Of a stretch of 64,000 nt of DNA, positions 8,590 through 27,562 are shown piece by piece. The position numbers were made by a program, and so were the translations under genes. Position 1 is the stretch's first letter. Each line of letters begins with the position of its first letter. The stretch lies in contig OZ242010.1 in NCBI GenBank assembly GCA_965204745.1, positions 3,392,001 through 3,456,000 on the forward strand, written 5' to 3'. The DNA comes from Candidatus Latescibacterota bacterium (GTDB lineage: Bacteria; Latescibacterota; UBA2968). The notes under the pieces were generated by a model. That model saw only the letters and a list, made by a program, of their open reading frames with translations, was not told the origin of the DNA and did not search any database.

Positions 8590-8865
8590 TTAAGCTTGGT
8601 CGCTTTCGTCAAAACTCGGCACCTCGGCAATCGCATCGTCAAGCGACCTGATCGCTTCCCGCACATCCACTTGCCCGGTGACCACATCGGCGATCAGGCG
8701 CGTGCGGTATTCGCTCAACAATTCGATCTCCCGCTGGGCGCCGTCCATGTCGTCGTCCAGATTCCCGACGTGCTTTTCAAGCCGCCGGTCTTCGGTTTCG
8801 ATAAACACAATGCCGCTTCCGTCGCTGTTTCGCACGGCGCGGATTTCATTGATTTCATCCTGCAT
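8590..8865 (-). pseudogene. Chimeric ORF: unrelated N-terminus fused to the HsdS C-terminal conserved segment
   Basis: AQREIELLSEYRTRLIADVVTGQVDVREA nearly identical to the hsdS C-termini at 11425 and 22798. Confidence 0.75.
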
Positions 8866-9166
8866 GATGAATCCCCCCGCAAAAAAGCACCGACCTGATT
8901 CCTCCGTCAGTGAAATAGGGCCCCGCGCCCAAAGCGCTCTTAATCAACCGAATCTCGTCGGCGGCAACTTCAAGCCGACGACAGCCCGAAAAGGGCCCGG
9001 TTTTCATCATGGGATATGTCGCTTTGACGCGAATCGGCACGCCCATATTGGCCCCGTTTTTATCCTTGGTCAAAACAGCATGAAACACAACAACCTCCTC
9101 GTCGGTCAACTCCGTGTACGTCTCAACCTCGTTCACGTAGTTCGACCAGCAGTTGAGAATCCACAC
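8855..9166 (-). CDS. Hypothetical protein (possibly mobile-element derived)
   Basis: 103-aa ORF overlapping the next ORF start; no recognisable motif. Confidence 0.4.
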   Translation of the reverse strand: MWILNCWSNYVNEVETYTELTDEEVVVFHAVLTKDKNGANMGVPIRVKATYPMMKTGPFSGCRRLEVAADEIRLIKSALGAGPYFTDGGIRSVLFCGGIHHAG

Positions 9167-9713
9167 CGCTCTTTCAAATCATAACATCTTGTCACATCTT
9201 GTCACAAATCGCACAATTTGAATAGACGCTTCATCGGGTCAGCGTCCAAGCACTTACAACCTCTTGTCCGTCTTACAACACCTCCACGTCCGTTTTTTAC
9301 TTGGTCGGGTGAGCTCTCCGGCCAAGGGAATAGTTTTTAAGTGGGACACCCACATACCATTCTCCGTCAAGGTTTTACACTGGCACGGGAATCTATCGCC
9401 TGGTGATGCGCTAGTGCGTATGGTTCTCATACACAAAACACCTTCGCCAGTAACCGCATACCTTCGCCAAATATCAAAGAACAAAAATCCGCCGATGGTT
9501 GTCAACAAAGCCCCGCTTTGCCCCCGGCGGAATGAGAAAAATACAAATAGGGCGTGGCGACTAGATACCCTGTTTGGACGACCACACAGGTCAAAAGGTT
9601 TTATTTTTTCGATTTGTTCCATTTTTTTGATTTGTTACCATTTGTTACCATTTTCGCACACTGTTAAAAGCCCCGTGTTCCTTTTTTATCTCGGTGGTCA
9701 GGCCATGGGGTGC

Positions 9714-10757
9714 TCAGAGAGGCTCTATCCAGTTTTTCTCGGCGAGCACCTCGAGGGCAATGCCGAGTTGTCGGCGGGTGAACTGGCTTTTGCGCTCATT
9801 CCACGTATATGTTCGCTCGGCGACCTCGGCAAAGGTCGATGCCCGCTCCTTGCGGACAACCCAATGGACGGTTGCCAACAATTCCAAGCCGAAGGCCGAC
9901 TCGAATCCCTCGATAAGCGCAGACACCCTGTCAATGTGGCCGGGCGTTTGGGGCGTATCCGCGAGAAAGGTGCGTGCATCCTCGAGCGCACCGGGTACCA
10001 GTTTTAATTCCTTGTGGGGGGCATCGCCTCCGTCTGCGTAGCCGAACACAAAGTGTCCTTCAATGGCATGCAAGACGTGCCGGAGGTTTTCGGCGTAAGG
10101 TCCGTAAATGCCTTTGGCGAACCGCAGTTTCAACGGCTCGCCAGCGGTCTGCATGAAGTACATGAGTTTGTGTACTTCCAGCAGGGTAATGAATGGATCC
10201 AACAGACCGCGCAGGTAGCGGTCCATTAGCCCGATAAGCGCGGCCCGTCCCGCGGTCATTTTCGGGACCTCGCGCGAACGATTGGCCCTCTTGTCCACCG
10301 GGCCTCCGCCCGGCTCAAATACGACGACCTTCACGTCGTCAAATTTCTCCAAAGCCGCCTGCACTCGCCTGCGAACTTCCGACCAGTCCAAGCCGCCCAG
10401 TCCACTGCCGAGCGGGGGAATGGCAATGGAGCGGATGCCGCGCGCTCGTATTTCCTGTGCGAGCGATGCCAAACCGGATTCGATATCCTCCATGCGGCTT
10501 TTGCCTCGCCAGTGCCGTTTGGTGGGAAAGTTGATGATGTAATGGGGATGGGTAAGTTGCCCGGTCTCGAAGACGAACACCTGTCCCGGTTGCATTTCGT
10601 CGCGCTTGCACCGGGCGGCGTAGGCTTTGAAGTTCTCGGGAAAGGCACGCTTGAATTGTAGCGCGATGCCACGCCCCATCACCCCGACGCAGTTGACGGT
10701 ATTGACCAAAGCTTCGGCATCTTCCGCGAGGATGTCGCCGGTCTTGTATTTGAGCAT
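9714..10757 (-). CDS. darG: DarG antitoxin, macrodomain ADP-ribosyl glycohydrolase
   Basis: LVNTVNCVGVMGRGIALQFK, IINFPTKRHW, SIAIPPLGSGLGGL, C-terminal GLELLATVHW. Confidence 0.95.
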   Translation of the reverse strand: MLKYKTGDILAEDAEALVNTVNCVGVMGRGIALQFKRAFPENFKAYAARCKRDEMQPGQVFVFETGQLTHPHYIINFPTKRHWRGKSRMEDIESGLASLAQEIRARGIRSIAIPPLGSGLGGLDWSEVRRRVQAALEKFDDVKVVVFEPGGGPVDKRANRSREVPKMTAGRAALIGLMDRYLRGLLDPFITLLEVHKLMYFMQTAGEPLKLRFAKGIYGPYAENLRHVLHAIEGHFVFGYADGGDAPHKELKLVPGALEDARTFLADTPQTPGHIDRVSALIEGFESAFGLELLATVHWVVRKERASTFAEVAERTYTWNERKSQFTRRQLGIALEVLAEKNWIEPL

Positions 10758-26170: not shown

Positions 26171-27206
26171 TTGTAGCCTCTATAAGTGATTTGCCGATGG
26201 CTTCGGCCAGTTTAACCGGTACAGCATTGCCCACATGTCGCGCCGTTTTGGTTATGACAACGGATTGCTCAGCCTCTGCGAATTTGTAATCGCGCGGAAA
26301 GGTTTGCAACAATGCGGCTTCTCGAACGGATATTGCGCGATGTTGCTCGGGATGCCCAAAGCGTCCGGTGCTGTAATAACAAAATTGGGTGGTGATGGTC
26401 GGTGCCGGCGCGTTCCAGCGCATTCTGCCGTAGGACGATGAATAGGATGCCTTGCGATGGCAAGCGTTGACAATATCATCGTCCCAATCCTTCCACGTCC
26501 CACCCTGTTTGGATTGGCGAATCCGTTGCTTATTCTTTTTTGATAACGCCATTGAAATATGAGCAGGGTCATCGGGAGAGGATTCTCCGTCTTGAATCTC
26601 GGGCAAATCTCGGATAAAGTCGGCAACGGTCATTTTATTTTTAATAGGGCGCGGCAAAGAAACGTCACCCAATTTGGATGCCAACAAAACGAGTCGTCGT
26701 CTATTTTGCGGAACGCCATAGTCCACACAGCGCAAAATAGCATGATCGTGACAATAGCGCAGTTGATCCAGCGTTGAGAGGAACTCATCGAAAGATTCAT
26801 GCTTCATGAGACCTGGCACGTTCTCCATCGAGACCAAATCGGGATTGCATTCTTCAATCAGGCGGGCAAATTCACCAACCAATGAGCAGTCATCCGCCCG
26901 AGAAGTTTTCGTCTTTCTATTCTCATTATGCGCTGAAAAAGGCTGACAAGGCGCACAACCAACCATTACCGTAACATCCGCGTCCTTGTAATGTGGCGCA
27001 ATATGGCGGAATTGAAGATCACGAACATCGTCCAAAAAAAACTTGGAGTTACGATTATTGGCCTCGTATGCATATTGACACGCCGGATCAGTATCGAATC
27101 CTGCCTTGACGCGAATGCCTGATAAATTGAGTCCGTGCGTCAACCCACCAATACCGCAAAAGACATCCACTGCGTGAATTTTCTGTGATCCGTTTTTTGC
27201 TGGCAT
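26163..27206 (-). CDS. DNA (cytosine-5)-methyltransferase
   Basis: DVFCGIGG, PCQPFS, MENV, PQNRRR, REAALLQTFP, GNAVP. Confidence 0.95.
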   Translation of the reverse strand: MPAKNGSQKIHAVDVFCGIGGLTHGLNLSGIRVKAGFDTDPACQYAYEANNRNSKFFLDDVRDLQFRHIAPHYKDADVTVMVGCAPCQPFSAHNENRKTKTSRADDCSLVGEFARLIEECNPDLVSMENVPGLMKHESFDEFLSTLDQLRYCHDHAILRCVDYGVPQNRRRLVLLASKLGDVSLPRPIKNKMTVADFIRDLPEIQDGESSPDDPAHISMALSKKNKQRIRQSKQGGTWKDWDDDIVNACHRKASYSSSYGRMRWNAPAPTITTQFCYYSTGRFGHPEQHRAISVREAALLQTFPRDYKFAEAEQSVVITKTARHVGNAVPVKLAEAIGKSLIEATNV

Positions 27207-27499
27207 TTTAGGTCCCTCCTTTTATCAGTTGAGCACTTTTCCGTATCATAGCCAACTTTGCTCGCATGTTCTAAGGATGCCTTTAGTATGGCGGAATGGC
27301 TACTCCCCGATAATCTTCAAGCAACCTTCCTTTTTTCCTTTCTACGGCCCAAACATCCCTAGCGTCCACATCGGCTACGACTCGTGAAACTTGGGAAATA
27401 TCCACTAGCAAGTCAACCCCAAATCACGGCACCTCGGTTCCTCGCTGGGCGAGATACTGGCTATATGCGAACAGCCGATCTCGCCTTTTGCCCGTGATC

Positions 27500-27562
27500 T
27501 CACGGGGGCCACGCCACGCCGGAGGGCTTGTAGTGGGGATAGGGTTTGAGGTCGGCTGTCAT
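27500..27562 (-). pseudogene. 20-codon hsdS N-terminal stub
   Basis: MTADLKPYPHYKPSGVAWPP*; matches the hsdS starts at 12084 and 24108. Confidence 0.8.

Follow-up and report, generated by a model that had tools for sequence, protein, structure and literature searches.

The 64,000-nt window analyzed here, from contig OZ242010.1 of a Candidatus Latescibacterota bacterium, contains a Type I restriction-modification (R-M) locus in which other defence genes lie between the hsd genes and pieces of hsdS are repeated. This island extends, in the direction of the minus strand, from 27.6 to 6.9 kb, and its open reading frames (ORFs) predict a single Type I system that has hsdR and hsdM once each, together with a full and a half hsdS. 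The hsd genes and the pieces related to them were as follows:

27500..27562, minus strand: hsdS 5' stub, 20 codons (MTADLKPYPHYKPSGVAWPP) and then a stop; the similarity to the family ends after about codon 17
22798..24108, minus strand: full-length hsdS, 436 aa, with two target-recognition domains
20979..21074, no strand assigned: hsdR upstream region, promoter-like, 96 nt, with TACTTGAC motifs, ending immediately before the hsdR ATG
17997..20978, minus strand: hsdR, with HSDR_N, SWI2_SNF2, ResIII, and T1R_D3 domains
15866..17977, minus strand: hsdM, 703 aa, beginning 19 nt past the hsdR stop
11425..12084, minus strand: half-size hsdS, 219 aa, with the 5' conserved end, one recognition domain, and the 3' conserved end
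8590..8865, minus strand: 91-aa ORF whose C-terminal part is an hsdS 3' end (similarity at 8653-8784)
6893..7080, no strand assigned: three tandem copies, of about 78 nt each, of the hsdR upstream motif region, with no hsdR after them

HsdM scored 170 bits against N6_Mtase, 80 bits against HsdM_N, and 803 bits as a PADLOC MTase_I of the PDLC03029 type, and HsdR reached 195 bits against TIGR00348, below the 285-bit cut-off. The full and half hsdS share their ends and have unrelated recognition domains, and the locus predicts a system with a full and a half specificity subunit and a single methylase. To place this organization within its family, we used an HsdM scan with one genome per species, in which 589 relatives were detected and the best 80 were used throughout. 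These showed 64-82% HsdM identity and came from many bacterial phyla and from archaea, and the species of the window was not among them; the hsdS ends, HsdR, and the cargo proteins of the window were mapped onto the 80 loci, which are denoted by L and a number. The order in the window is S-R-M-S, against the canonical M-S-R on one strand, and hsdR was found directly upstream of hsdM in 0 of the 80 relatives and downstream of hsdS in 62 loci. The promoter-like region at 20979-21074 was 95% identical to 6893-6988; this 96-nt copy stands directly after an AlbA_2 gene and ends where the ATG of hsdR would come, and it can be read as an echo of the AlbA_2-hsdR adjacency that is canonical in relatives. 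The paired TACTTGAC motifs before hsdR recall the direct-repeat operators of the RptR-regulated island of enteropathogenic E. coli (EPEC), with no regulator gene identified here.

The repeated hsdS ends were then compared. The initial annotation had reported the hsdS 5' sequence at 27562 (stub), 24108 (full), and 12084 (half), and the same 29-nt core was identical at all three positions, with 0 of 100 shuffles matched; the half and the full gene were 92.7% identical over 96 nt, and the stub and the half gene 91% over 57 nt. A further, degenerate copy (MTCDL) had been proposed at 15869, and it was rejected: 12 of the first 15 nt match and the similarity then stops, four of the matching nt are forced by the ATGA stop/start overlap, and a profile of 77 N-terminal ends of the family gave no match there even at E<10. 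The same offset in a few cargo-bearing relatives gave 16-18 matches in 30 positions, which is not clearly above background. The hsdS 3' sequence was present at the three reported sites, strongly at 22.9 and 11.5 kb (22831-22983 and 11446-11598, 94.1% identity over 153 nt, longest perfect run 54 nt), and at 8.7 kb (about 8653-8784) only in the last ~90 nt (89%). Since all the hsdS end copies are on the minus strand, they are direct repeats, as had been stated. The spacing within the repeat pairs is about 12.0 kb for the 5' ends, 11.4 and 2.8 kb for the 3' ends, and 14.1 kb for the promoter copies. The full hsdS carries, in addition, repeats at 23395-23490 (5'-type, 71% identity) and 23473-23628, and this pair is the normal internal repeat of a two-domain HsdS.

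The copies within the window were 93-94% alike, and none of the 80 relatives exceeded 86-88% at the 5' end or 77-78% at the 3' end; for hsdM, the nucleotide identity to relatives reached about 80%. Being far closer to each other than to any relative, the hsdS copies belong to one cognate system, and have a recent origin in common or are homogenized. With 29-54 nt, their perfect runs are longer than the minimum that RecA recombination requires by the values for E. coli. The 91-aa ORF at 8590..8865 is, as judged from its C-terminal similarity, a putative remnant of an older hsdS, and a protein 96% identical to it is present in other public sequences. No decayed hsdS was found between DarG and this 3' fragment, where the HsdS of 64 relatives matched only the known 3' end.

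The genes embedded between and beside these pieces, here called cargo, were as follows:

26163..27206, minus strand: C5 cytosine DNA methyltransferase (PF00145, 201 bits)
24110..26170, minus strand: BbrUII/HgiDII-family restriction enzyme with a GHKL ATPase domain (NF050001, 690 bits, cut-off 550)
22074..22814, minus strand: TIR-domain protein, PADLOC candidate PDC-S35 (322 bits)
21761..22045, minus strand: AlbA_2-type remnant, internally deleted (34% identity to AlbA_2 aa 7-84, E 1.3e-8)
15538-15777 and 15257-15526, minus strand: Ubl-like ORFs in tandem, 82% identical, with no family match
14874-15245, minus strand: E2-like ORF (E 0.0011, a weak match below the Pfam cut-off)
13408-14982, minus strand: ThiF-type E1, with the family match confirmed
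12213..13442, plus strand: DUF2971-like ORF (E 0.0009, a weak match below the Pfam cut-off)
10777-11421, minus strand: DarT (PADLOC, 227 bits)
9714-10832, minus strand: DarG (PADLOC, 449 bits)
7082..8572, minus strand: AlbA_2 + HATPase_c_4 protein, for which relatives have a counterpart between hsdS and hsdR

Known or candidate defence genes thus stand between hsd genes, i.e., as embedded cargo. In agreement with the initial annotation, the C5 methylase and the HgiDII-like enzyme lie between the 5' copies at 27562 and 24108, with the stop of the latter gene 1 nt ahead of the hsdS start, and DarTG, whose identity was upheld by PADLOC, begins 4 nt past the stop of the half hsdS and precedes the 8.7-kb 3' fragment. 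The TIR and AlbA_2 genes were likewise found right after hsdS 3' copies, the TIR gene overlapping the hsdS stop and the AlbA_2 + HATPase_c_4 architecture being confirmed. The Ubl operon, which had been placed between two hsdS 5' copies, is actually bracketed by the hsdM stop and hsdS, so that the Ubl/E2/E1 block (13408..15777) is cargo at the M-S junction. Within this operon and its DUF2971 neighbor, the E1 assignment stood, the E2 and DUF2971 matches were weak, and for the Ubl-like ORFs there was only an Atlas lead (Multi_ubiq, score 0.87), with 22-31% of the members of the nearest clusters carrying Multi_ubiq. The tandem duplication of the Ubl-like ORFs was also seen at the nucleotide level (15261-15508 versus 15542-15789, 88% identity). 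The AlbA_2-type remnant keeps about 50 N-terminal and about 45 C-terminal codons, and sits between the TIR gene and a remnant of an insertion sequence (IS). The HgiDII-family gene has an in-frame 36-nt tandem duplication at 25840-25911 (97% identity). The base composition of the locus is a mosaic, with a G+C content of 61-62% in hsdR and hsdM, 57% in the window outside the island, and 42-58% in the cargo (42% in the HgiDII-family gene, 42% in the DUF2971-like ORF, and 47% in the TIR gene).

Next, the same junctions were examined in the relatives, taking gap sizes from the first 5' match to the last 3' match of hsdS, which is approximate for a few complex loci. The M-S gap, measured in 72 loci, did not exceed 100 nt in 12 of them, was 100-600 nt long in 11, and was above 600 nt in 49, with a median of 1.3 kb and a maximum of about 5.4 kb; the S-R gap, measured in 62 loci, did not exceed 110 nt in 13, was 110-600 nt long in 6, and was above 600 nt in 43 (median 1.05 kb, maximum 6.7 kb). 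Among 86 ORFs in M-S gaps, the Pfam families found were GmrSD (12 loci), YhcG (4), HerA with SIR2 (4), ThsB-TIR (3), and Fic (2), along with Abi_2, KAP, ApeA, and others. The 82 ORFs in S-R gaps included Peptidase_M78 (5 loci) and AAA_21 (3), and also AlbA_2, DarG, PIN/DUF433, and methylases. Transposase families were detected in 2 of these 168 gap ORFs (L039 and L042) and integrase families in none. Counterparts of the AlbA_2 gene, with 59-65% identity, were found in L009, L011, L021, and L045, and lie just upstream of hsdR in L009, L021, and L045. DarTG is between hsdS and hsdR in L027, L058, and L060 and is present as fragments in L005 and L020, and in L067 the C5 methylase/HgiDII pair immediately precedes hsdS. 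No DNA homology to the L067 cassette was found in the spacer that precedes the C5 methylase of the window, and only the coding regions aligned, at 64-70%. The TIR, Ubl/E2/E1, and DUF2971 genes had no counterpart in the 80 loci. Cargo exactly at the hsdS borders is, then, a property of the whole family and not of the window alone: the two hsdS borders of the window are cargo sites, as they are in most members.

Related loci were also searched for cargo swaps with breakpoints in hsdS ends, as the initial annotation had recommended, using seven of the most similar pairs, which were chosen by hand and had 84-98% hsdM nucleotide identity. In six of the seven, cargo length or content differed in at least one gap. 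Blocks of high identity ended in or next to hsdS at 70 and 76 nt into the 5' end, at the end of the middle region, 67 nt before the end of the 3' block, and 20 nt past the stop; they ended elsewhere at 7, 290, and 640 nt past the hsdM stop, and at 168 nt before and 21 nt after the hsdR start. The informative cases are those with flanks of 96-98% identity around unrelated centers. In L044 and L048, an identity of 96-97.5% extended to 290 nt beyond hsdM and resumed 67 nt short of the end of the hsdS 3' block; the whole stretch between the identical blocks was replaced, and L048 has lost hsdR. In L039/L049 and L061/L072, identity stopped 70-76 nt into hsdS, and in L035/L036 at the end of the hsdS middle region. 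L017 has 100 nt where L035 has 3.05 kb of cargo, with borders 20 nt past the hsdS stop and 21 nt inside hsdR, and L060 and L071 have different S-R cargo from the hsdS end up to 168 nt ahead of hsdR. The recurrence of block ends in hsdS ends indicates that these are frequent crossover sites, as are the 3' end of hsdM and the 5' end of hsdR. The chosen close pairs fit the swaps that were looked for, with a bias towards what can be aligned.

Some relatives also carry duplicated backbone ends. Of the 76 loci with any hsdS-end match, 62 had a single ordinary hsdS, four were cut by contig ends, three were minor variants, two had 1.8-1.9 kb inside hsdS, and five had extra end copies (L014, which was weak, L020, L059, L070, and L078). 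The extra copies are 3' ends in L020 and L059, and 5' stubs in L070 (two) and L078 (one), where an hsdM 3' fragment directly follows each stub. Duplicated hsdM 3' ends were found in L028, L045, L070 (three), and L078 (two), with lone fragments preceding cargo; the fragment in L028 is 95% identical to the end of its own gene and stands directly before an AlbA_2-like cargo gene. L039 carries an hsdR 5' fragment. L070 is laid out as three stacked [hsdM 3'-cargo-hsdS 5'] units, and in L020 (15600-19456) a full hsdS is followed by an additional 3' end and by fragments of DarT/DarG, after which a half hsdS precedes hsdR; this makes L020 the closest parallel to the right half of the window.

Chimeric hsdS-hsdM joints were located at L070:13774-14118, L070:12502-12746, and L078:13388-13515. 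A protein search with the L070 joint ORF returned 1443 small proteins matching the C-terminal part of HsdM, and at least 18 of the best 120 (P0004-P0123) had HsdS residues 1 to about 21 fused to the last ~65-70 residues of HsdM, most with an identical joint and a few with others. No HsdS-N-like segment was found in full HsdM, so these fused proteins are true chimeras, and the possibility that they are plain HsdM fragments was rejected. All three joints of L070 and L078 are damaged to some degree, and scars fit this better than a conserved gene does. Small ORFs made of hsdS 3' ends gave 84 database matches. Microhomology between the hsdM 3' and hsdS 5' ends was rejected as the cause of the joints, with the longest common substring having a mean of 7.55 nt versus 7.30 nt in shuffled sequences.

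Taking together the repeats, the cargo identities, the family-wide hot spots, and the breakpoints and scars seen in relatives, we consider it on balance probable that cargo was gained or replaced by recombination anchored in the conserved hsd backbone, an event that would be clean if two-sided and scarring if one-sided. The route, the order of events, and any present-day activity are what we infer from these observations. DNA of related loci would pair at the hsdM 3' end, at the 5', middle, or 3' segments of hsdS, or at the hsdR promoter/5' end. Where both sides were homologous, the exchange of cargo or recognition domains would be clean. If only one side paired, by homology-facilitated illegitimate recombination, Campbell-type entry of a circle, or local tandem duplication, a piece of the backbone would be duplicated, and a truncated copy would stay behind. 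In the window, the 27562 stub, the 8.7-kb 3' fragment, the second hsdS, and the additional copy of the hsdR promoter would be scars of this kind, and the same scars may record the rearrangement of M-S-R into S-R-M-S. In the simplest view, an incoming half hsdS with DarTG would have largely replaced an older hsdS, sparing its last ~30-45 codons. The 3' fragment, the AlbA_2 gene, and the promoter copy stand in series, which is the hsdS-AlbA_2-hsdR arrangement of relatives, and the stub before the methylase/HgiDII pair would be the mirror case at the 5' end. The S-R-M-S order could stem from a circularized M-S-R unit that entered a resident hsdS end or promoter copy by Campbell-type insertion, or equally from a tandem duplication after which one hsdM and one hsdR were lost. 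In the present layout, crossing over between the long repeat pairs would remove hsdR and hsdM, and the repeats are more readily seen as a record of past events than as a switch.

The proposal that conserved hsdS ends act as homology anchors was supported in part, as probable crossover sites, and was amended in that they are not the sole anchors: the 3' end of hsdM and the promoter/5' end of hsdR serve equally. The idea of a cassette platform fits as a by-product of the conserved backbone, and nothing shows selection as a platform. The locus is an unusually scarred example of defence genes embedded in a Type I R-M operon.

Several points weigh against recombination anchored in the backbone. The stub has no hsdM fragment after it and no hsdM upstream, and extra hsdM 3' or hsdR 5' coding fragments, sought in the island as parallels to L070 and L078, were absent; the S-R-M-S order accordingly needs at least two steps. 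An IS remnant inside the island suggests that transposition also acted here. Since only conserved parts can be aligned, block ends fall at the edges of conserved segments partly by construction, and the seven pairs are not independent, L035 and L049 each being used twice. Duplicated ends occur in only 7 of the 80 relatives (8 with the weak case of L014), with most cargo being free of scars, and there was no excess microhomology between hsdM 3' and hsdS 5' ends. The best HsdM match to the window was 82%, and no exchange event was caught at the window locus itself. Assembly errors at the 96-153-nt repeats may also have contributed.

A related view is an integrase-free cassette array, in which a joint of stub and hsdM 3' end would give internal homology, so that new [hsdM 3'-cargo-hsdS 5'] units, coming from any related locus, would stack and leave the resident cargo in place; this fits the three stacked units of L070, the L078 joint, and the at least 18 fused small proteins, and we hold it to be rather unlikely as an account of the Type I R-M backbones of this family. 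That recombination between direct repeats would release such units as circles spreading between genomes is put forward with equal reserve, and the extension of the same scheme to the hsdS 3' end and the hsdR promoter is just as tentative.

Decay of two or three complete, independently acquired Type I systems, with the fragments as pseudogene debris and the cargo as unrelated neighbors, would account for one hsdM and one hsdR beside four hsdS pieces. The AlbA_2 and IS remnants point to decay under way in the locus, and small ORFs of this type are common in databases (84 for hsdS 3' ends and 1443 for hsdM 3' ends). Nevertheless, independent acquisitions would be expected to differ more than the hsdS ends do, which are 93-94% alike against at most 88% (5') and 78% (3') to relatives. 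Moreover, the cargo lies within 0-20 nt of the fragments, and both the cargo-at-junction pattern and the kinds of scars recur in relatives, so that we regard decay as improbable.

Specificity variation, a phase variation without invertase to which the half hsdS, the stub, and the 3' fragment would contribute as donors, either alternative or silent, is suggested by the two intact hsdS genes, whose recognition domains are unrelated and whose shared ends have perfect runs of 29-54 nt, and systems with duplicated hsdS that switch by recombination have been described (PMC7394358). In the window, however, the repeats are all in direct orientation, at distances of 2.8-12 kb, a reciprocal crossover of the intact genes would delete hsdR and hsdM, neither a recombinase nor inverted repeats were found, and the stub and the 3' fragment have no recognition domain to donate; with a single hsdS in 62 of the 76 relatives with hsdS matches, this explanation appears quite improbable. 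Finally, that different strains or loci were joined in assembly at the 96-153-nt repeats, which are about short-read length and accompany a gene order (hsdR directly before hsdM) seen in 0 of 80 relatives, is very improbable, given that the copies differ at 5-10 positions each and so are not collapsed repeats, that the hsdR-hsdM junction (19 nt) is away from any repeat, that the 3' fragment ORF recurs at 96% identity in other public sequences, and that like stubs occur on chromosome-scale long-read assemblies (L070 and L078).

Type I loci with embedded defence genes are already published, and DarTG between hsdS and hsdR is among the examples. DarTG2 lies between these genes in the EPEC RRDM island, at a site termed a 'potential recombination hotspot' (PMC12255303), and a GmrSD-like pair (TgvAB, on VPI-2) lies inside the Type I operon of V. 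cholerae (PMC11411939), where earlier notes on GmrSD and on the C. jejuni rlo genes in Type I loci are cited. Type I systems often hold embedded genes, a feature described as 'guilt by embedding' (bioRxiv 10.1101/2024.01.29.577857), and the words 'recombination' and 'hsdS' have 0 occurrences in the main text of that preprint. Islands of hsdMS move by lateral transduction and homologous recombination (PMC12829572). The window is like these embedded loci in having unrelated defence genes between hsd genes, with DarTG directly after hsdS as in EPEC, and differs from them in having both hsdS borders filled, a permuted order, and duplicated ends bracketing cargo. On mechanism, the available text of PMC12255303 and PMC11411939 offers nothing beyond the hotspot remark. 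A full-text search, with subscription journals lying outside it, yielded no paper on duplicated hsd ends bracketing cargo or on hsdS-hsdM chimeric ORFs.

Recombination anchored in the hsd backbone has several known counterparts. In the classical Type I family hybrids, target-recognition domains are exchanged by homologous recombination in conserved regions of hsdS, and the same 5', middle, and 3' segments were crossover sites in L039/L049, L061/L072, and L035/L036; in our case, however, whole defence genes outside hsdS are exchanged as well, and some events leave duplicated ends. Homology-facilitated illegitimate recombination, known from Acinetobacter and pneumococcus, inserts DNA beside an anchor with one illegitimate joint and leaves target sequence over, as would be the case for the stub and the 3' fragment; it is an experimental transformation phenomenon, whereas the window is known from its sequence, which indicates neither an uptake route nor enzymes. 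Integron cassette arrays are alike in outline, with units that stack at one site and could in principle leave as circles (L070), yet the window has no integrase, its junctions are hsd gene ends and not attC-like hairpins (folding untested), no common promoter logic was shown, and recombination here would rely on general homology. Phase-variable Type I systems of the SpnD39III inverton type have inverted repeats and usually a site-specific recombinase (PMC7672463, PMC7394358). They resemble the window in that several hsdS genes or part-genes with conserved repeats serve one hsdM; they shuffle specificity only, whereas the window has direct repeats, no recombinase, and cargo in between. The distinction from invertase-driven hsdS shufflons drawn by the initial annotation was borne out, with no inverted repeats and no adjacent site-specific recombinase family among 59 ORFs.

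Embedding has already been used to find new defence systems, and entry without mobile-element genes is left unexplained in the available text of the papers cited above. The duplicated backbone ends beside cargo are footprints that make the embedding route testable. If the anchoring of recombination in the backbone is true, the conserved hsdM, hsdS, and hsdR ends could be used as computational landmarks for harvesting cargo, and the quick turnover of chromosomal defence islands would be explained.

Regarding mobile elements and surroundings, Pfam recombinase and transposase families had 0 matches in the 59 scanned ORFs of the window. The statement that it contains no recombinase gene held for intact genes, and has to be qualified by a weak transposase remnant inside the island. 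Two further features were recorded:

21229-21651, minus strand: probable C-terminal remnant of an IS5-family transposase (NCBIfam E 0.003, weak)
8855..9622, minus strand: two ORFs (orf122 and orf103) with no family match, possibly non-coding

The IS5-type repeated element is also present at 42332-42740 and 38714-38827; the weak transposase resemblance is in its first part, and the ORFs over the remainder look spurious. The genes that flank the island are of housekeeping type, one resembling chorismate lyase and the other encoding an epimerase. In the epimerase gene, a 160-nt piece recurs 1.5 kb away (28570-28736 and 30111-30270, 96-99% identity), its second copy lying within or next to the neighboring gene. 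Palindromes like repetitive extragenic palindromic (REP) elements, with GGGGTACAAC... hairpins in both orientations, occur at 6812-6879, 27627-27700, 31229-31362, and 31737-31824, i.e., at the island borders and beyond, and about seven tandem copies of the heptamer ACTGACA lie at 27753-27801, just outside the stub end of the island. At 34618-36127, 7 kb from the island, an AbiEii-type toxin gene and an upstream partner ORF form a defence/toxin-antitoxin module. In a survey of 5,426 E. coli genomes, one record of this hsd subfamily was found (L081, plasmid NZ_CP133812.1); its M-S-R operon is compact and preceded by a DUF262 gene, and the plasmid, of the IncFII type, has annotated mobile and resistance genes as well.

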